Made by a program: the position numbers and the translations under genes. A model generated the notes under the pieces. It saw only the letters and a program-made list of their open reading frames with translations, was not told the DNA's origin and ran no database searches. From a virus, in the IMG/VR virus record IMGVR_UViG_3300037309_000058: DNA of 43,571 nt; one strand, given 5' to 3'. Positions 2,015-39,198 of this stretch are shown piece by piece. Every line of letters begins with the position of its first letter. Within the stretch, counting starts at the first letter, position 1.

Positions 2015-4396
2015 TCAGTTATTGATGCGGCGACGGGTATTGAGGCTGCGAACGCTGCCCGGAGCCGTGGGCCGGTCATCGCCCGCGCCTTCTCCAGCCA
2101 AGCGGCCTTGCAACCGCCCGTCACGTGCGGACACCTGGATCGTACGCAGAAGCTGCTGAGCTTCGCTCTTCGGCATTCCGCGCTGGACAAGGTACGCCAA
2201 GGCGTCCTGTGTACGAGCCGGGTCAATGGCGTCGCGCACAAGGCGCTCGGCATCCACGCCGCGCATTCCGGTATTCTTGAGAAAGCGCCCGGCTGCGCGC
2301 ACGATTGTCCAGACCGGGCTAAAGCCCGCCGAAGCAGCCGTCTCTACAACGGTATCCTCGACACCACTGTTCTCAGCTTCCTGCATACGGCGATAAGTCT
2401 GGCTGCCGATGCGCGGATCGACGTAGCGTGTAGCGTCCACGCGATTGACCTCAGCCGCCATGCCGCGCTGAAGGCTGTCGGCTTTCTCAGGACCGAGCAA
2501 CGCTTCGTTGCGGCGGCGCTGATTGCTGCCGCGCGCTATCTGCCGTGCAGTGGACATCGCCTGCGCCCCGCTCCCTTCACGAGCGCGGTTGGCGACTTCG
2601 TCACGGGCGCGGACGCGCATGGCCTCTTGCTCACTCATGCCGGTACGGGCTTCTCCAACATCATCGATGAAAGTCGGCCCGGTCGGAGCAGCGTTGTCAA
2701 CTGCGGAGGCTAGTTCGTCAGGCCGTGCCCGCAAGAAGTCGGTGTTCTCGAAGCGGCGTCCTGTTCCTTGGGCCGCGTCAATCACACCGCTGGCATCGGC
2801 GTAGTTATCCAGCGCCGCTGCGTAGTCATCGCTCTGTGAGCGCGCGGCGTCCCGCACAGCATTTGCGAACTTGGTCGCGACGCGCTCAAGACCGGGGTTC
2901 TTGCTGCCCCGCCCCTTCATGGCGCGGGCGAACTTGTCGGCGACGTCGACCGTCAGGTTGGCACCCTTCATGACCTCGCGGGCAATCTGCTTGCGGATTG
3001 CTTCGGGGAAGGCCGGGTCGATCTTCTGTATAGTGCGGACCGCCGCAAGAATGTTGTCCACCCCCGCTTTGTCGGCAGGGTCGGTCATGAAGCCCTGTGC
3101 GCCGCGCAGCGCAGCGACCCCTTCGCGCGTGCCGAGGATATCAAGAACCTCGTCGGTTATCGGCACCGGCTGCGAGCGAATAGGCTCCATCGCACGCTCA
3201 ATGGTGTCGTCGCGCAGCCCCGTCGTAGCGTCGGCAATCTGGCCTGCGGTCATGGGGTTGCCGCTGATCACGCGCTCGGCTTGTCCGGCCACTCGGTCTT
3301 GTGCGCTGGAGTAGACGTCGTCTGCAAAGCGCGCGAGGTCTGTGTTGGCGGGCGTGCCCTTGTTCGCAGCGGCGCTCACGACACCCCGGCCTGACTCGTC
3401 GAGCAAGTCCAGCAGGCGCACGTCGTCAAAGCCAAGGTCTTGGAGTTCCGCCAGACGGCTCTCCATCGCAGGTACGTCAGGGTTCGCGCGCCGCGCCAGC
3501 GCCTCCAGCCCGCTATCGGCGGTGTTCGCAGCGGGGCCAAATCCGAGACGCTCTTTGGTCCGATTGAGGATGCCCGCGCCAACGTCTACGACCGGCTTCA
3601 GCACGCCGCCAAGCGCATAGCCACCGAAGCCACCCGCCGTCGCGTTGGGAAGACGATCAATAAGATCTCCTTCGCTGTTACCCATTGCGCTGATGAAGCC
3701 CTCAGCGCCTGCGGTATTGGCGGCTTGGCGGACCGAACCGCCCCCGCCTCCGAGACCTGCCCAGCTCGGCCCTGTGATGGAGCCGGGAAGAAACCCCGCA
3801 CTGAACATCCCCGGACGGTCTTCCCACGCCTGATCTTTCTCGCTCTGCTGCTCTTGGCGCAGAGTCTCGTAAATATCCCAGAAATCTGCATTACTCTCGT
3901 TCAAGCCGAGAGCGGTTCCGAGCTTGTTTCCGGCCGCGCCGACAAAGCCGACCAGCTCATCGTCGAAGCCGCGCAGCGCCCCCGATTGCAGTCCGCGCCA
4001 TAGAGCCTCGCCTGCGCCAGTCTGTTCGCGCTCTTCGGTCTGGGGGGCGACCGTGAATAGCCGCCGTTGCGGAAAGCCTTTGAGCCGCGACTGCTCGTAG
4101 TCCTCGTTCAGCCACTTCATATCAGCCTCGTTCATAGGCCGACCGTGCTCAGCGATGAACGCGGCTATGTCCGCTGCCGGGGCTGCCTCGCTCATCATGG
4201 TGTTAAGACGCTCACCGATTTGCTCGCTGGAAAGCGGTGTAGTGAGCGGCGGCGCGGCTTCAGGCGCGGCGAAGTCGCTCCACGGCCCCTCCGGCTCGTC
4301 GGCTACGACAGGCGGCGCACTGGCCACGGCGGGCGCGGCGGGCGCGGCGGGCGCGGGAGGCGCTGCGCTCTGGTAGTCTTCCCAGGGTCCGCTCAC
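2015..4396 (-). CDS. Large internal virion / ejection protein (793 aa)
   Basis: It is the last of three coupled genes after the fibre. It has a Pro/Ala-rich N-terminus and Gly-rich segments, and the start has an ATGA overlap with the upstream gene. No enzymatic motif was recognised. Confidence 0.55.
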   Translation of the reverse strand: MSGPWEDYQSAAPPAPAAPAAPAVASAPPVVADEPEGPWSDFAAPEAAPPLTTPLSSEQIGERLNTMMSEAAPAADIAAFIAEHGRPMNEADMKWLNEDYEQSRLKGFPQRRLFTVAPQTEEREQTGAGEALWRGLQSGALRGFDDELVGFVGAAGNKLGTALGLNESNADFWDIYETLRQEQQSEKDQAWEDRPGMFSAGFLPGSITGPSWAGLGGGGGSVRQAANTAGAEGFISAMGNSEGDLIDRLPNATAGGFGGYALGGVLKPVVDVGAGILNRTKERLGFGPAANTADSGLEALARRANPDVPAMESRLAELQDLGFDDVRLLDLLDESGRGVVSAAANKGTPANTDLARFADDVYSSAQDRVAGQAERVISGNPMTAGQIADATTGLRDDTIERAMEPIRSQPVPITDEVLDILGTREGVAALRGAQGFMTDPADKAGVDNILAAVRTIQKIDPAFPEAIRKQIAREVMKGANLTVDVADKFARAMKGRGSKNPGLERVATKFANAVRDAARSQSDDYAAALDNYADASGVIDAAQGTGRRFENTDFLRARPDELASAVDNAAPTGPTFIDDVGEARTGMSEQEAMRVRARDEVANRAREGSGAQAMSTARQIARGSNQRRRNEALLGPEKADSLQRGMAAEVNRVDATRYVDPRIGSQTYRRMQEAENSGVEDTVVETAASAGFSPVWTIVRAAGRFLKNTGMRGVDAERLVRDAIDPARTQDALAYLVQRGMPKSEAQQLLRTIQVSARDGRLQGRLAGEGAGDDRPTAPGSVRSLNTRRRINN

Positions 4397-13892: not shown

Positions 13893-14993
13893 TTAGTGGG
13901 CTTCACTGAGAATACGGTTGGCCGATGCTTCGAACGCAGTGAAATCGTCCGTAGCCGGGTCGACAGAGAAGCGGCCCCCCGCGCCGCGCGCGGTGTGCTT
14001 GGGCGGAGGCGGTGCCTTGCTCGCCATGGGCTGCCTCGTGCCCTGATTGCTGGGCTGCTCCTGACCGGCTTTGAGAAAGCGGCCTTCAATGCGGCCAATT
14101 TCTCGCGCCTGTTCGAACGCGTCGAGGCCGGAGATGCGCTCCGACTCCGCCGGGTTGCTGGCAAGATGGTACGCGACGTGCGCGCCGACCGGGGAAGTCT
14201 TGACCAGAATGGCCGACTCGAGGGAGAGCTTCCAGGCGGCGTTATCGGCCCCCTTGATGACCTTTTCCTCAAAGTCGGGGTACTGCGTCTTGATGGTTTC
14301 ATCACTGATCTGCGAAGACCAGCCCTGTTCCATCGCGTCGAACTCCTGCTTCAGCGCAGTGCGCTGTTCGCGTTCTTGGAGTTTGACTTCCTGCCGATAC
14401 TCGGCCATGTCGATGATATAGTCGGCATCGGCCTTGCCGTACTCGTAGTCATCCGGATTGGGCTCTTCCCCGGGGTCACGAGTCTTCTTGCCGTCCTCGC
14501 CTTCGGGCGTTTTGCCCTCCAGCTTGGACAGCCTTGCCTCGAGCTCTTCGCGCTCACGCGCTCGTTCGCGCTGCTCTTCGGCAAGTTTCCGCTCGGCTTC
14601 ACGGCGCGCAGCGGTCAGCTCGTCAATTCTCTCCTGAACAGACGAGCCCGGCTGATCTTCTTCGGGGTCAGGAGTCCCCTCATCAGCAGTGTTCTGTTCA
14701 GGAGTTGCGGGGTTGACGTCCCCGGAACTGTTGTCGTCGGACTTCTTGTCCTCGCCGCGCACCTTCTTCTCGAAGTCGGCGAAGTTCTCTTCCGTGCCGA
14801 AGTCGGCGGACGGCGCGGGGGCTGTGTCGCTCGGTGCAAGCGCGGGGGCTGGCGCGGGGGCTGGCGCGGGGGCTGGCGCGGGGGCTGGCGCGGGGGCGCT
14901 GTCGTGGCCGTCGGGCGCGCGCATGAACCGGCCTGCGGCCCGTTCTGCGGCAGTCATTGCCGCGCCTGCCAAGAAGGTGCTCTTGATGCTCAT
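13893..14993 (-). CDS. Scaffolding protein
   Basis: It lies between portal and coat. It is charged, helical and low in complexity (EEQRERAREREELEARL), with a (PA)n tract near the N-terminus, and has an ATGA overlap with the portal stop. Confidence 0.7.
   Translation of the reverse strand: MSIKSTFLAGAAMTAAERAAGRFMRAPDGHDSAPAPAPAPAPAPAPAPAPALAPSDTAPAPSADFGTEENFADFEKKVRGEDKKSDDNSSGDVNPATPEQNTADEGTPDPEEDQPGSSVQERIDELTAARREAERKLAEEQRERAREREELEARLSKLEGKTPEGEDGKKTRDPGEEPNPDDYEYGKADADYIIDMAEYRQEVKLQEREQRTALKQEFDAMEQGWSSQISDETIKTQYPDFEEKVIKGADNAAWKLSLESAILVKTSPVGAHVAYHLASNPAESERISGLDAFEQAREIGRIEGRFLKAGQEQPSNQGTRQPMASKAPPPPKHTARGAGGRFSVDPATDDFTAFEASANRILSEAH
14839..14898. repeat. 12-bp tandem repeat (about 4.8 copies of CGCGGGGGCTGG) encoding the (PA)n tract of the scaffold
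   Basis: Read directly from 14841-14897. On the minus strand it translates to APAPAPAPAPAPAPAPAPA. Confidence 0.9.
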
Positions 14994-19222: not shown

Positions 19223-19752
19223 CAGTTGATATCCTCCGGTCGCAGGCCGCTGAGATCTTCGAGCTCGGCTTGCTTGCGGCCCTTTTCAAGCAAGCTCTGT
19301 CCGATATCGATGGCTGCGTCGCGCACCGACATCTCCTCGCGGGTCGCCAGCTCACTGAGCAGCGTCTCGAGCGGCAAGGTCTCGGTTTCTTTCGGCGCAG
19401 TGGCGGGGATAAGTTTGCTCCACAGCCGGTAGAACTCGGTCGGGTGTTCACGTCCCCACACTACGAGCGCGGGCACGCCGCCCATGAGGTCGAAGGCGTC
19501 TGCGAGATCTTGGCGCGCTTGGCTCATGATCTTTGGCGACTGCGTCCCGCCTTTTTGATGGAATGCGCGCTTCTCATCAAGGCGCTTTTGCTCATGCGCG
19601 AGCAGAAGATCGAAGTTGGCGTCGCCCTCGGCGGCTTTGGACGCCATCTCGATGGTCTTCTTTTCCTTGTACCGAGCCTTGCGGCGCTCGAGCGCAGCCT
19701 CGTGGCGACGCCGCTGCTCCGCTGTTTCGTACTTCTTGCGTGGGCGTGCCAA
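19222..19752 (-). CDS. Putative terminase small subunit
   Basis: It is the first gene of the minus-strand block. It has a TTG start with AGGAG 7 nt upstream. The N-terminus is basic and the central motif is GGVPALVVWGREHPTEFYRLWSKLIP. The call rests on position and general resemblance only. Confidence 0.4.
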   Translation of the reverse strand: MARPRKKYETAEQRRRHEAALERRKARYKEKKTIEMASKAAEGDANFDLLLAHEQKRLDEKRAFHQKGGTQSPKIMSQARQDLADAFDLMGGVPALVVWGREHPTEFYRLWSKLIPATAPKETETLPLETLLSELATREEMSVRDAAIDIGQSLLEKGRKQAELEDLSGLRPEDIN

Positions 19753-19891
19753 GAATCTTCTCCTGCAATGACGAACTTACTCGACGGCCCCGCTGCGGGG
19801 GTACCTTCGTCAAGGCCGCAGCCGCCGCGCCCCAAGGTACCCCCGGCACACCCCACCCCCGTTCGCCGAGGATCGGAGAAGCCGAGCCACT

Positions 19892-19926
19892 TCGTTAACC
19901 ATGTTCGTTAACCGAACTCGTTAACC
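19892..19926. repeat. Three direct TCGTTAACC repeats phased every 13 bp
   Basis: The copies are at 19892-19900, 19905-19913 and 19918-19926. They lie 140-175 bp upstream of the TerS-like gene start. Confidence 0.9.
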
Positions 19927-20115
19927 GTGAATCTTTACTCATCATTAACCACGATCTCCGTGGCTCCGGCCCAATGTGACGTCACACGGGGCGCTGCAAA
20001 TCCACGTGACGTCGTGACGCCGACGTTGCAATCACGGCGTCCCCGATGCGCCGCGTCTCCGGGGCAGTGTTTACAATCATGGTTAATTGAGATGCAAGGG
20101 GCTTGATATCGCAGG

Positions 20116-20128
20116 TTAACCTTAACAG
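20116..20128. repeat. TTAACCTTAACAG, copy 1 of an exact 13-mer
   Basis: It is preceded by GG, which makes a palindromic GGTTAACC. The identical 13-mer recurs 121 bp downstream. Confidence 0.9.
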
Positions 20129-20236
20129 TTTAAGCCGCTGAAACGGCAGGCAAAAACGGCAGCCGTACAGATAGGCCAAGCATCTGTATGGTAAATATCT
20201 TAACTCAAAGCATTAATATCATTGGCAAATCCCACA

Positions 20237-20249
20237 TTAACCTTAACAG
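20237..20249. repeat. TTAACCTTAACAG, copy 2
   Basis: Exact match to 20116-20128. Confidence 0.9.
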
Positions 20250-20272
20250 ATAACACATAACAGTACTTACTG

Positions 20273-20300
20273 TTGATACTTAAGAAAGTAGGTTAATAAT
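20273..20300 (+). promoter_or_regulatory. Candidate sigma70-type early promoter (TTGATA-N16-AATAAT)
   Basis: The -35 is at 20273-20278 and the -10 at 20295-20300, about 130 nt upstream of the first plus-strand gene. It overlaps the TTAACC-type motifs. The host consensus is unknown. Confidence 0.35.
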
Positions 20301-20323
20301 TTAACCATTGTTAATTAGTGTAA

Positions 20324-20338
20324 GGTTAATTATTAACC
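20324..20338. repeat. Perfect inverted repeat GGTTAAT-T-ATTAACC (operator-like)
   Basis: Read directly. A near-copy, GGTTAAT-AA-TTTAACC, is at 20291-20306. Confidence 0.85.
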
Positions 20339-20433
20339 TACTTTGCTAGGGTAAAGTTAGGGGTGCTGTACACTGTGCATCTGTTATTCCTAGGCCTTTA
20401 CAACACGTTAACCCTTTACAGAAAGGTCTACAC

Positions 20434-20919
20434 ATGCTGTCTGTTAAGCAAATCGTAACCATACTCAGCGCCGCCAAGGCTCTGCGCCCCGTAAATCCAG
20501 CCCTTGCGGAACAGCTTACAGACATGGTTAACGAGGCCGAAACCATGCGTGCAGCGGCCGCGCAAGCCCGTAGCGACGCCGCTGCGCAGCGCGGCCAGCG
20601 GGGCGCGCCAAAACTTCCCTTTGCCATTGTCGTTAATCCCGGGGAACCCATAGTCTGCTATGGAGCCAAGGCCACGGCTGCCAAGCTGGCAACCGTGCTG
20701 CGCGCCCATGGCGCTACCCGCGCAGCCCCTGCCCACACAACCCTAGGGGTCGCCATCAGCCGCCAAGGCCATTGGCAGCACGCACTGGAAACCGATAACG
20801 GATTCGTAACCATAACCGTTCAGCGTTGGCACGAATCTTGCAGTGAGACCAGAGGGCGCGGAACTGCGAAGCAAGAATCATGCCAAAACCCGAAAAATGC
20901 GAAAACTGGAGTCAGCTAG
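20434..20919 (+). CDS. First early protein (161 aa), unknown function
   Basis: ATG with GAAAGG upstream. It is the only long plus-strand ORF here. Confidence 0.55.
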   Translation: MLSVKQIVTILSAAKALRPVNPALAEQLTDMVNEAETMRAAAAQARSDAAAQRGQRGAPKLPFAIVVNPGEPIVCYGAKATAAKLATVLRAHGATRAAPAHTTLGVAISRQGHWQHALETDNGFVTITVQRWHESCSETRGRGTAKQESCQNPKNAKTGVS

Positions 20920-21353
20920 GTAAAGGTAGCCTGGACGAGCCGCATCGTCTCAAATCGTCTTAAAAGTCGGCTTAAACGTGAACTGGAATTTGCCCCATGG
21001 CCAGCGCCGCGCAGAAAAATGCAAGGTGCGAAAAACTGTGTCACTTTGGTACGGAAAATTCTTGGCTCACATTTTAACTTTCCTTTAACGAATTGCGCGC
21101 ATACATAGGTCACACGGGGCGCACGGGGCGCTCCAGGGTGCGGGGCCGCACCCCTGCAAGCCAGCTAGGGCTTTCTAGCGTTCCATGGCCTAGGGCGCGC
21201 AACCCCTGCAATGGCACATGGGCTTATCGGCCGTCATGCTTTACCCTACGGGGGCGGCGGCAAGTGCGGGGCACCATAGCTCCAAACGCGCGCGGGGCGC
21301 TACCGGTCAGCCTTTAGGGGCAGGGGCCATGGGGCAAAACGCGCGTCGGTTAG

Positions 21354-21389
21354 CAGCCTAGGGGGCTGGGGCAACCCTGCCCCCGGCTG
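21354..21389 (+). promoter_or_regulatory. Long hairpin with a GCAA tetraloop
   Basis: It reads CAGCC-ta-GGGGGC-t-GGG-GCAA-CCC-t-GCCCCC-GGCTG. That gives 14 paired positions with one T/T mismatch and a 2-nt bulge. Confidence 0.7.
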
Positions 21390-21398
21390 CTATGTGCC

Positions 21399-21448
21399 CC
21401 TGCCCTACATTGGCCAGCGCAATGCCGCGCTGGCCTTACTAGGGCAGG
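21399..21448 (+). promoter_or_regulatory. Two-tier hairpin whose 3' arm overlaps the Shine-Dalgarno of the 21459 gene
   Basis: The outer stem is CCTGCCCTA/TAGGGCAGG (9 bp) and the inner stem is GGCCAGCGC/GCGCTGGCC (9 bp, loop AATGCC). AGGAG at 21446-21450 is partly inside the outer stem, and the ATG is at 21459. Confidence 0.65.
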
Positions 21449-21458
21449 AGTTACGAAC

Positions 21459-21746
21459 ATGATTAACGAATTTTACCATGAGCTCACCTGCGGCGCAACC
21501 GGCACGGACTGCCCCGCTACGCTGGCTTGGCTAACTGCCAAGCTGGATGGCGATTCGCAGTACGCTGCCGCGCAGCGCGCCGCCGCATATTGGGCCGCCG
21601 CCGACGAAACGGTGCGCAGCGCAATTGCTGAGTGGCTCGGCTGGCTGGACTGCCCCGTGGCGGAGCGCGCCCCCGTGCCGCGCGCCATTGCGCAGGATTT
21701 CAAGGACGCCGAGCGCTTTGCGGAAGAACTGCTTAACGGCGATTAA
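21459..21746 (+). CDS. Early protein (95 aa), unknown function
   Basis: ATG with AGGAG 8 nt upstream. The composition is acidic and Trp/Ala-rich. Confidence 0.6.
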   Translation: MINEFYHELTCGATGTDCPATLAWLTAKLDGDSQYAAAQRAAAYWAAADETVRSAIAEWLGWLDCPVAERAPVPRAIAQDFKDAERFAEELLNGD

Positions 21747-21807
21747 TCATGTAAGGCGGGGGCACATAGCAGCAATCAAGCTGCAAATCACTAACGGAGT
21801 ATTTACT

Positions 21808-22470
21808 ATGACGACCAAGACCATCACTCGCGCCGCCAAGCCCGTTGCCAACGCAAAGGGCATGACCGGTAAATCCGCCCGCAAGATCGCGACGACCAAG
21901 GCTGCCGAAAAGGCTCCCAAGGACGTAGCGCCCAAGCTGGCCGATCCGTCCAAGCCCGCCGACACCATCGTGGAGTCCAAGGGTGTGTCCGGCGGCGTCA
22001 AACACTACGTCAGCGCCAACGACGGACGCAGCACGATGATCCCGACGGCTCAGTGGCGCGGCGAAATCCGCAAGCTGGCTGCCGTCGGCCAGTCGTACGA
22101 CGCCTTCTGCGCCGCGTGGAGCCGTGCCAGCACGGCCAAGCTCGCGGCAGGCGTGGATGCACGCAATGCCCCGCATAGCGCCAAGGCGGTCCAAGACTCC
22201 AAGGCCACTCAGCCGGTCAAGCCTGCCAAGGTCACCGCTGCCAGCCGCAAGGCTGCCGCAGTGGCCAAGGCCAGCGCCGAGGACTCCAAGGCGTTCAAGC
22301 TGACCGAAAAGGGCGAGGCCAAGCTGGCCAAGCTGGACGCCAAGGCGCGCGCCGCCGACAAGCTCCAGCGCATGGCAACCGCTGGCTCCATCGCCGCTGC
22401 GATCGCCCTTGACGGGGTGAGCCGGGGCGACGTCAACTACGCCATCAAGTGCAAGTTCATCGGCTACTGA
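21808..22470 (+). CDS. Lys/Ala-rich DNA-binding-like early protein with the shared C-terminal module (paralogue 1)
   Basis: I used the internal ATG at 21808 with ACGGAG upstream. There are long K/A/P-rich tracts, and the C-terminus is LTEKGEAKLAKL...DGVSRGDVNYAIKCKFIGY. Confidence 0.6.
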   Translation: MTTKTITRAAKPVANAKGMTGKSARKIATTKAAEKAPKDVAPKLADPSKPADTIVESKGVSGGVKHYVSANDGRSTMIPTAQWRGEIRKLAAVGQSYDAFCAAWSRASTAKLAAGVDARNAPHSAKAVQDSKATQPVKPAKVTAASRKAAAVAKASAEDSKAFKLTEKGEAKLAKLDAKARAADKLQRMATAGSIAAAIALDGVSRGDVNYAIKCKFIGY

Positions 22471-22482
22471 GCATCCCCCGGA

Positions 22483-22512
22483 CCCCTGTCCCAGCGCAAG
22501 CTAGGGCAGGGG
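22483..22512 (+). promoter_or_regulatory. GCAA-capped hairpin just after the 22470 stop
   Basis: It reads CCCCTGTCCCA-GC-GCAA-GC-TAGGGCAGGGG, with 11 Watson-Crick pairs, 1 G-U pair and 1 mismatch. Its arms are related to the outer arms of the 21399-21448 hairpin. Confidence 0.65.
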
Positions 22513-22548
22513 CGAGGATGGACGCTTTGTCCAGAATGGAGACGACCT

Positions 22549-22791: not shown

Positions 22792-22794
22792 GCA

Positions 22795-22919
22795 TGACCA
22801 GCGTCCAGATGCTGATCCGGGTAATCCCGGCCCCGCCTCCGCTTGTGCCCTATGCGGCGCGCAAGTTCGCACGGCTGCCTAGGCGCACGTTCGGCAGGCG
22901 GCTCAAGCCGTGCTGCTGA
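22795..22919 (+). CDS. Possible small basic protein (41 aa)
   Basis: ATG at 22795 with GGAGGG 6 nt upstream. It is not in the ORF track as a separate entry (internal start within 22665..22919). Weakly supported. Confidence 0.3.
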
Positions 22920-22984
22920 GCTTGCTGGCCATGCTCGTGGCCATTGTGCTGGCCAGCCTGCCGGACGACTGAGCGCCAAGGCGC

Positions 22985-27963: not shown

Positions 27964-27994
27964 GCTACACAGGCGGCTTCCGGTCCAGGGAAGG

Positions 27995-28028
27995 GAGCCG
28001 TCCGTGCTTGAGTGCGGGCGGCTCTTTT
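27995..28028 (+). terminator. Rho-independent terminator between the early and replication modules
   Basis: The stem is GAGCCGTCCGTGC/GTGCGGGCGGCTC (13 pairs including 3 G-U), the loop is TTGA, and TTTT follows. Confidence 0.6.
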
Positions 28029-28054
28029 GGGCTTAGGACAAGCGTGAGGAAAAT

Positions 28055-30440: not shown

Positions 30441-30531
30441 GGGTGTTGTGTGCGGGGGTTCAACCCCCCCGTTCGGCCTCCGCACACACCCTGTTACGAG
30501 TTTACCTGTGTCATGTTAACGGAGAAACTTA

Positions 30532-38519: not shown

Positions 38520-39198
38520 GCCCGTCAAGAGCCCTCTCCAGACGCCGCCGTGGTGGCGGGAGGGCTTTGTGCCTTGCGCCTGTCGTGATCCTGCCAGCGT
38601 GGCGGGAGGGCTGTTCGGCACCATGTTCATGCTTGCCCCTACATTCGAAGGCACGTTGGCGGTGCAGCGAATCGTCAATATGCCGGGGCACCTAGGCGTC
38701 AGGGAGCGCGTGATCGCCGCCAACCAAATGCGACACTATACTGTTATAACAGACGAAGAAAGTGCTTTACAGTCACTTCTTCTCGAGCTAAAGTCCCAAA
38801 TGCTGACCGAGGGCGCGACGCGCGAGGCAGTACGTTTAGTCGGGGAGTATATCCCCATAACCGACAAGGAGTACAAGATCATGTCCGAGAAGCTCAAGAC
38901 CCCCGCCAAGAAGGCCCCCGCCGCCAAGGCCCCGGCTGCGAAGGCCCCCGCCGCTCCCAAGAAGGCCCCCGCCCCGCCGAAGGAAGGCTCTGGCCGTGGC
39001 CGCGCCTCCACGCTCGACGAAAAGGCCAAGCTGGCTCTGACCGAAAAGGGCCAGAAGAAGGTCGAGAAGGCGGGCAAGGACGACAAGCTGGCGCTGATCG
39101 CCAAGGCCAAGACCGTCGGCAACGCCCTCAAGGTCGATGGCGTCCTGCCCAAGGACATCCACTACGCCGTGAAGGTCGGCCTTCTCGAGCTGAGCTGA
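38506..39198 (+). CDS. Protein with a histone-H1-like AKP tract and the shared C-terminal module (paralogue 3)
   Basis: I chose the GTG at 38506, which has GGAGAG 5 nt upstream. It contains KKAPAAKAPAAKAPAAPKKAPAPPK, and the C-terminus is LTEKGQKKVEKAG...DGVLPKDIHYAVKVGLLELS. A shorter product from the ATG at 38881 (AAGGAG upstream) is possible. Confidence 0.55.
   Translation: MVKRKPVKSPLQTPPWWREGFVPCACRDPASVAGGLFGTMFMLAPTFEGTLAVQRIVNMPGHLGVRERVIAANQMRHYTVITDEESALQSLLLELKSQMLTEGATREAVRLVGEYIPITDKEYKIMSEKLKTPAKKAPAAKAPAAKAPAAPKKAPAPPKEGSGRGRASTLDEKAKLALTEKGQKKVEKAGKDDKLALIAKAKTVGNALKVDGVLPKDIHYAVKVGLLELS

Follow-up and report, generated by a model that had tools for sequence, protein, structure and literature searches.

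A non-coding stretch of phage DNA selected to fold as RNA precedes the replication operon of an uncultured clade and may form a cis-acting structured leader

Long untranslated and structured RNA segments located early in phage operons are known from the leader of the lambda N gene, laid out as pL-nutL-RNase III hairpin-N, and from the RNase III sites of the T7 early mRNA. In these systems irregular hairpins of ~20 bp lie just before the ribosome-binding site (RBS), and structure around the start site limits translation until the RNA is processed or remodelled. The put RNAs of phage HK022 are cis-acting structured RNAs that immediately follow an early promoter where a long operon begins, while GOLLD, ROOL and the phage-borne riboswitches exemplify conserved, covariation-supported non-coding RNAs in phage genomes. 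Here we describe a gap between two genes, positions 20920-21458 of a 43.6-kb viral DNA (IMG/VR record IMGVR_UViG_3300037309_000058; the whole stretch of 43,571 nucleotides (nt) is hereafter called the window), which shares traits with all of these systems. The gap encodes no conserved protein, its right part (21111-21458) is selected to fold as plus-strand RNA around a single-copy core, and it keeps a constant position before a gene of one family, whose member in the window encodes a protein of 220 amino acids (aa). We favour, with moderate confidence, the view that the gap is a non-coding module of the rightward operon, acting as a cis-acting structured mRNA leader that would control translation and processing, and possibly read-through. 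By this means it probably controls the expression of the replication genes.

The locus also departs from each of these precedents. It has no sequence or Rfam relation to the lambda N leader or to the T7 sites, it contains an invariant 111-nt core of three hairpins, and its nut-like features are only suggestive. The put RNAs measure ~70 nt and consist of two stem-loops, whereas the leader described here is five times longer and differs in architecture. Unlike GOLLD, ROOL and the riboswitches, it lacks an Rfam match, a closing helix or multi-stem junction, and a metabolic gene context.

Relatives were found by searching with the flanking proteins, and 16 contigs (L001 and L003 to L019) were fetched. 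Their gene order is constant: a small terminase gene on the minus strand, a divergent region, a first plus-strand gene (126-161 aa), the non-coding gap, sometimes a small gene, and the gene of the 220-aa family, which is the downstream neighbour of the leader in every case. The gap between the same two genes measures 137-774 nt in 14 related contigs and is non-coding in every one of them. An initial annotation of the window, made from its sequence alone, had held that lack of conservation in relatives, together with lack of a discrete or abundant transcript, would speak against a functional element. Measured against L003/L009, the nearest relative, identity reaches 88.6% in the structured part of the gap, compared with 65.9-84.1% for the neighbouring genes and 77.7% for the divergent region.

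The same annotation had pointed to the lack of a credible open reading frame (ORF) in the gap, and this is borne out. The two ORFs it listed exist (21093..21317 on the plus strand, 74 aa with a TTG start; 20916..21113 on the minus strand, 65 aa). The small ORFs of 20920-21458 nevertheless show no codon periodicity, no RBS before their starts and no Pfam match at E<=1, so that no conserved ORF with codon bias and a start signal was found in this interval. GC contents at the three codon positions of the 74-aa ORF are 0.63/0.71/0.68, against third-position values of 0.73-0.87 in real genes, and its frame is disrupted by indels in L003. That a small protein is encoded in the gap is therefore very improbable in our opinion. 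Plus-strand ORFs of 74, 47 and 36 aa are present and the 47-aa ORF is open in L003 too, but its start is missing in L001-type sequences and its conservation in L003 merely tracks near-identical DNA. The accompanying picture of a tightly packed genome is broadly correct, with some qualification. Other apparent gaps on the plus-strand arm contain small ORFs with an RBS, which makes 20920-21458 the main non-coding stretch apart from the divergent region (19753-20433), yet 22792-22984 is non-coding like these two.

The whole stretch folds at -247.3 kcal/mol, with z = -3.68 on the plus strand (none of 100 shuffles was as good) versus z = -2.43 on the minus strand. Where the window and L003 differ, paired columns are avoided: they hold 19 of the 48 substitutions, where ~30 are expected (p = 0.001). 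When L008 is added to the alignment, 96.5% of the cells pair and 10 pairs change on both sides, as compared with 3.7+-1.5 in shuffles (0/500 reach 10) and 0-1 when the partners are slid. In several stems G-U replaces G-C, and such pairs would be A-C mismatches on the opposite strand. The covariation among related phages that the initial annotation had proposed to look for is thus present and specific to the plus strand. Pairwise covariation counts from RNAalifold were not clearly above those of column-shuffled controls (4 vs 1.6, maximum 5; 12 vs 8.4, maximum 12), and for this reason we rely on the three-sequence test and on the seven-sequence test described below.

The structured part is built around a conserved core of 111 nt (21178..21288) made of three hairpins in series, H3, H4 and H5, all read, like the helices discussed further on, on the plus strand. 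H3 (21183..21221; loop UAGGGCGCGNNACCCCUGCAAU) has an outer stem that occurs in five complementary versions around a nearly fixed 22-nt loop, UAGGGCGCGNNACCCCUG(C/U)AAU. H4 (21230..21261) has the apex CCC-UACG-GGG, a UACG tetraloop cap in the window type, and is followed by H5 (21268..21283). The core is 95% identical among the window, L003 and L008, though the 220-aa family protein of L008 is only 44% identical to that of the window. A covariance model, R1, built from the core of these three phages finds exactly one copy per genome, on the plus strand only, and additionally detects the core of L001, L019, L018 and L017 at E-values of 3e-7 to 3e-9. All 170 cells pair in the resulting seven-sequence alignment of 25 base pairs, 28 of them changed on both sides as against 10.8+-2.3 in shuffles (0/500 reach 28), and the covariation score is 0.505 versus 0.197 for shuffled and at most 0.128 for slid alignments. 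R1 did not detect the core in L004, L005, L010, L011 and L013-L016.

The suggested search for known RNA families returned none. With Rfam 15 there were no matches at the gathering threshold in the window and none at E<=1 in 13 related loci. Relaxing the limit to E<=10 over 2.2 kb (19700-21900) yielded no family match either, the best sub-threshold hit being HCV_SL588 on the minus strand with 21.4 bits against a gathering score of 79. A scan for tRNA and tmRNA genes found none. Compared with riboswitches, the locus has a conserved core and an RBS-sequestering hairpin but no closing P1 helix, and the genes downstream of the leader encode small proteins without recognised function and replication proteins, not metabolite-linked ones.

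Further helices flank the core on both sides. Those on its 5' side are variable hairpins. H0 (21116..21134) is followed by H1 (21140..21157), whose stem (GCGGGG-loop-CCCC(U)GC) is retained with the loops CCGCA, CCUUC, CCGGUA, CGGCA and CCUGAC and is duplicated in L017. The stem of H2 (21164..21179) reads GCUAG/CUAGC in the window, GCCGG/CCGGU in L003 and GCCGG/CCGGC in L008, i.e., two double changes and one G-U pair possible on the plus strand only. On the 3' side, the multi-helix domain H6 (21289..21350) is closed by GCGCGCG / CGCGCGU, a helix with two double changes in L008; its inner helices are less well kept (75-92% paired). H7 (21351..21392) is a long hairpin, UUAGCAGCC...GGCUGCUA, capped by a GCAA tetraloop at 21371-21374; its outer stem is common to L010, and three of its pairs show double changes across the window, L003 and L008. 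The last hairpin, T (21399..21448), is an inverted repeat of 9+9 bp around a 4x4 internal loop, with the outer stem CCUGCCCUA/UAGGGCAGG and an inner stem of 9 bp that covaries, from GGCCAGCGC/GCGCUGGCC to GGGCGGCGC/GCGCCGCCC in L010 and also in L008.

Several elements of this architecture had been noticed in the initial annotation, with mixed outcomes. Its three hairpins (21136-21153, 21354-21389 and 21399-21448) are all present, and so is the 9-nt tandem, two copies of CACGGGGCG at 21113-21131. The repeated CCCTGCAA occurs at 21152 and 21204, as described, but is not enriched (3 matches vs 1.5 expected), and neither are the TAGGGCAGG motifs, of which 8 were observed with at most one mismatch vs 8.2 expected. 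A proposed long-range pairing of CCCCTGC with GCAGGGG is lost in L001 and L019, where no partner exists. Another pairing, of 14 bp between 20989-21002 and 21325-21338, dominates the single-sequence fold and was rejected as a conserved feature, only 8 bp being left in L003. The proposal of a structured leader or non-coding RNA itself is backed by conservation, by strand-specific covariation and by a constant position between a conserved upstream element and the RBS of the next gene; the specific long-range pairings are not.

The 3' end of the structured part touches the translation signals of the next gene. The 3' arm of T overlaps the Shine-Dalgarno sequence AGGAG (21446-21450) of a 95-aa gene with its ATG at 21459. 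Moreover, a 25-nt segment (21386..21410, plus strand) that shares bases with H7 (its 3' strand) and with T (its 5' strand) is 92% complementary to a distal arm at 21749..21773 (plus strand). The distal arm closely follows the 95-aa gene and precedes the leader belonging to the 220-aa family gene. This long-range repeat is kept in L003/L009 and in L010 (2597-2619 / 2949-2971; 23 nt, 96%). The arms of L008 (3669-3688 / 3881-3900; 20 nt, 100%) carry the same three substitutions and one indel in both and enclose an unrelated 44-aa ORF. Across phages the arms lie 192-338 nt apart. According to predicted folds, RNA extending up to the distal arm forms H7 and T with the RBS paired, while the full RNA forms the long-range stem and leaves the RBS unpaired in the window. 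Small exchangeable genes seem to land in the leader, and L006 likewise has a 44-aa gene inserted there relative to L005.

Double-stranded RNA of the length expected of an RNase III substrate, ~20 bp or more, was found in T (9+9 bp) and in the long-range stem (20-25 nt, 92-100% complementary), and L017 has a continuous hairpin of ~20 bp. As stated in PMC6582327, RNase III processing stems flank 16S and 23S rRNA. The arrangement described here resembles these stems in that complementary arms form a long duplex around a functional RNA segment. It differs from them in that the enclosed small protein gene varies by phage and the 5' arm competes with two local hairpins; cleavage would be expected by likeness.

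Directly 5' of the hairpins, the left third of the gap ends in a conserved sequence that we call element P (21072..21109, plus strand), TTTTAAC-TTTCC-TTTAACGAATT-GCGCG-CATACATAGG. Element P is unique in the window, 89.5% identical to its counterpart in L003, and present in nine related contigs, including L001, L003, L004, L008, L010, L017, L018 and L019. In L004, where the leader consists only of P, one hairpin and the RBS, ~50 nt separate P from the start codon of the gene downstream. Judging from its sequence, P could be either an unusual promoter or a boxA-like RNA element. A sigma70 or extracytoplasmic function (ECF)-type promoter was considered and rejected, as by inspection no hexamer spacing fits and a scan found none there. 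A literature search for the motif sequence returned nothing relevant.

The position of P bears on whether the structured part may be a gene of its own, in which P would serve as the promoter of an RNA of ~340 nt released by processing at T and acting in trans, e.g., sequestering a host protein or a defence system as a decoy or sponge. We regard this as unlikely, though less so than the other alternatives. The structured RNA does begin directly after P, the core is conserved far beyond what pairing needs and occurs once per genome, and the stable UACG and GCAA tetraloops are typical of autonomous structured RNAs. However, no terminator follows the RNA, which is always fused to the RBS of the next gene, and in L004 only one hairpin separates P from the gene that it would drive. 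In addition, the core is missing from several relatives with the same gene order and matches no Rfam family.

The second half of P suggests yet another role. CCUUUAACGAAUU in the window and UCUUUAACAAAUU in L017 resemble what we take to be the boxA of the E. coli rrn operons, UGCUCUUUAACAAUUU, and CUCUUAA in L004 resembles what is presumably its lambda counterpart, CGCUCUUA. The leader could accordingly contain a nut- or put-like site for processive antitermination, with this half of P as a boxA-like site for NusB/NusE and with hairpins that modify RNA polymerase for read-through of the hairpin-rich intergenic regions. P heads an operon of ~22 kb in which strong hairpins lie between genes. Furthermore, the leader of L005 ends, directly before the RBS, in a canonical intrinsic terminator that must be read through, CCCCGGC-AATTCC-GCCGGGG-UUUUUU (1401-1430), which makes read-through control a live possibility in the clade. 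We nonetheless consider a site of this kind rather doubtful. The boxA-like run, compared with a consensus that we assume, is without the 5' GCUC; the loops of H0 and H1 that follow it vary, whereas boxB-type loops are conserved; no N-like protein was recognised, nor any arginine-rich N-like motif or known fold in the product of the first gene; and no U-tract terminators were found near the leader of the window. Strong GC-rich hairpins just before the RBS occur in many intergenic regions of the plus-strand arm (22471-22548, 27964-28054, 30441-30531 and others), e.g., CCCCUGUCCC...GGGCAGGGG at 22483-22512, and L001 and L004 have similar ones. Such hairpins may serve as processing sites or as terminators without U-tracts.

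The left third (20920-21110) contains DNA motifs rather than GC hairpins. It largely coincides with an AT-richer spacer (20886..21071; GC content 0.47-0.53 vs ~0.62 for the genome) that includes one pair of direct repeats 129 nt apart, GAAAAATGCGAAAACTGG at ~20890 and GAAAAATGCAAGGTGCGAAAAACTGTG at ~21013, and the motif TCGGCTTAAACG at 20967..20978. A further motif, CGCTTAAAACGAG, recurs in L001, L004, L011, L017 and L018. The initial annotation had also listed a DNA-level element, i.e., an origin or a cluster of protein-binding sites. As a putative array of binding sites this description suits the left third and the sigma54-type sites that adjoin it upstream; the origin has gained no support. 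For the gap as a whole, an origin or protein-binding array whose hairpins form in single-stranded DNA or are incidental appears quite unlikely to us. The AT-richer stretch with its direct repeats does lie beside GC-rich DNA, it has sigma54-type sites and conserved DNA motifs as neighbours, P and the divergent control region have TTAAC-type motifs in common, and the phage encodes its own PolA and primase. Yet the features expected of an origin come down to the one repeat pair and the AT-richer stretch, with no repeat array. The plus strand folds better than the minus strand, the last hairpin is placed against the RBS, and the G-U covariation of the GC-rich part, being specific to one strand, speaks for RNA rather than an origin. 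A G-run excess that might hint at G-quadruplex or R-loop priming (11-12 runs of four or more Gs vs 4-5 of Cs in the window and L003) was rejected, since the asymmetry is not seen in L010, L001, L018, L005 and L013.

The TTAAC-type motifs also occur upstream, where the divergent region is rich in GTTAAC/TTAAC (19880-20420), e.g., three CGTTAACC at 13-nt spacing (19892-19927). Related motifs in P and at the start of the 95-aa gene suggest that one DNA-binding regulator may be common to the three places. Another feature of the divergent region is a sigma70-like promoter, TTGATA-16-AATAAT (20273-20300), overlapped by a perfect 17-nt inverted repeat (20285-20301 / 20328-20344). An exact 14-mer, GTCACACGGGGCGC, occurs both there (19981-19994) and directly after P (21109-21122); it is not retained in L003.

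Upstream of the gap, the end of the first plus-strand gene is marked by putative sigma54-type promoter sequences. The sigma54 -24/-12 consensus is TGGCAC-N5-TTGCW (PMC12316311). Site A, TGGCACGAATCTTGCA (20827..20842, plus strand), located in the non-conserved 3' tail of this gene, matches TGGCAC-N5-TTGCA perfectly, with the -24 GG and -12 GC at the exact spacing, and is the sole perfect match of the window. Site B, TGGCATGATTCTTGCT (20870..20885, minus strand), is inverted and has 2 mismatches with GG/GC retained. The inverted A/B pair also exists in L004, L005, L008, L010, L011 and L013. A third site, TGGTACGGAAAATTCT (21047..21062, plus strand), is degenerate in the window; it has a perfect or near-perfect plus-strand counterpart upstream of the 220-aa family gene in L004, L005, L013, L014 and L015. 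L016 is devoid of sites of either orientation; every other lineage has an inverted minus-strand site, and in L001 and L017 no other kind occurs. In 117 kb of related DNA, all 20 sigma54-type sites with at most one mismatch lie between -92 and +161 relative to the end of the first gene and none elsewhere. Across relatives the hexamers are conserved and the 5-nt spacer is variable, as expected of a recognition site.

These sites form a conserved cluster, often as a face-to-face inverted pair, where the first gene ends (20827-20885 in the window; L001, L004, L005, L008, L010, L011, L013-L015 and L017). Some of them face away from the downstream genes and would yield RNA antisense to the first gene. 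No GAFTGA-type activator motif was found in any frame of the window, where the sole Walker A motif is that of the CobS-like ATPase. In L019, a (CCCCTG)n microsatellite of about six units (600-645) takes the place of the stretch that in L001 separates the first sigma54-type site from the degenerate third one. Phage YuA, described as having sigma54-dependent promoters (PMC10914365, citing Ceyssens et al. 2008), was the one phage precedent for sigma54-type promoter sequences that our literature search found, as reported in that citing source. Like YuA, the present phage has -24/-12 type promoter sequences and presumably a GC-rich host; it differs in that the sites come as conserved inverted pairs where the first gene ends, some of them directed away from genes.

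Returning to the structured leader that we favour, the RNA would precede the coding sequences of the 95-aa gene and of those that follow on their mRNA, as a 5' or an intercistronic leader. Transcription may enter from upstream, at the sigma54-type site of 20827-20842, by read-through from the first gene, or at element P, in which case the 5' end would fall at ~21110-21116, right at the first hairpin. As long as the leader alone is made, hairpin T would hold part of the RBS of the 95-aa gene. Once the distal arm (21749-21773) is made, a long-range stem of 20-25 bp would replace H7 and T and free the RBS. Both this stem and the ~22-bp T hairpin would be long enough as RNase III substrates, and cutting by RNase III would excise the message of the small gene from the polycistronic RNA, by analogy with the rRNA-flanking stems. 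The invariant core would most likely be a binding platform for a protein or RNA polymerase, which would make the leader regulatory in translation, in stability, or in read-through of the many intergenic hairpins.

Some observations weigh against this view. The covariation statistics come from 3 to 7 related sequences, and for the core the alignment had been fitted to the model, a circumstance in its favour. Invariant stems, namely the outer one of T and most of those in the core, are uninformative either way. The set of hairpins varies by lineage: L010 is without H2 to H5, L004 and L014-L016 are without almost everything, and the L005 type is missed by the core model, so that much of the leader would be dispensable or replaceable. 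Unmasking of the RBS, clean in the predicted folds of the window, is less clear in those of L008. No intrinsic terminator, i.e., a GC hairpin followed by a U-tract, was found in 20920-21800 of the window. Since P misfits the -35/-10 pattern of sigma70 and no terminator-like site lies in or after the leader of the window, a promoter, read-through and processing are all candidates for the origin of the RNA, whose ends, abundance and even existence are inferred from sequence.

The genome around the leader is at best distantly related to deposited phages. The window, with ~62% GC, looks like a complete phage genome. Structural genes occupy the minus strand up to ~19750, and the divergent control region of 680 nt separates them from the plus-strand arm, which starts at 20434 and encodes a CobS-like AAA ATPase, a DUF7192 protein, a primase, a family A DNA polymerase and an SNF2 helicase; the replication genes lie within the rightward operon. 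The region 20920-21458 has no DNA similarity match among known or deposited phages. For the left 20 kb, the only match among deposited phages covers 3% of the length and is to Microcystis phage Mae-JY29 (76.5% identity over ~590 nt, 1124-1712, in a glycoside hydrolase gene), the sole nucleotide match to a deposited phage. The best match of the polymerase, with 41% identity, is that of Stenotrophomonas phage AXL3, and all 44 relatives of the 220-aa protein are metagenomic. The group has no close relative in the phage collection, and the clade is from metagenomes only. A search for a host in 185,579 bacterial genomes by protein profile and by H3 pattern gave no match, the H3 pattern being found in none of these genomes.

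The first plus-strand gene (20434-20919) has no Pfam or PDB sequence match, and its AlphaFold model (predicted local distance difference test score, pLDDT, of 53) is too poor for a fold search. Distant members (L005, L013-L016) have an AT-hook-like RGRP(P/A)K run. The ORF of the window has a C-terminal tail of ~25 aa that overlaps the sigma54-type sites and is missing from most relatives (a shorter tail exists in P0001/L003). The 220-aa protein (21808-22470) has a Lys/Ala/Pro-rich middle and the conserved motifs NAPHSAKAV and DFNW; its AlphaFold model (pLDDT 76) has two confident domains (pLDDT >90) and no PDB fold match below E = 0.1. Elsewhere in the window, tandem repeats lie within coding regions at 14812-14897 and 38896-38988, one with a 12-nt unit, GGCGCGGGGGCT, repeated 6.9 times and the other with overlapping 15-nt and 21-nt units.

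More speculatively, and as a conjecture that we hold improbable at present, the core might represent a new class of cis-acting RNA in direct contact with a conserved host machine, be it the ribosome, an RNase, or RNA polymerase with put-like but unrelated factor-independent antitermination. Together with the conserved sigma54-type cluster it would then control when expression passes from the first early gene to the replication operon, and the early-to-middle transition would depend on host sigma54. The regulatory RNAs of uncultured phages are largely unmapped, and the present locus brings together an unusually conserved core, a possible structural switch at an RBS and a covarying stem around an exchangeable small gene. 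The covariance model R1 can be used to find further members and, via them, the host. The leader and the sigma54-type cluster outline how a clade of ~43-kb phages may time the expression of its replication genes after that of its first gene.

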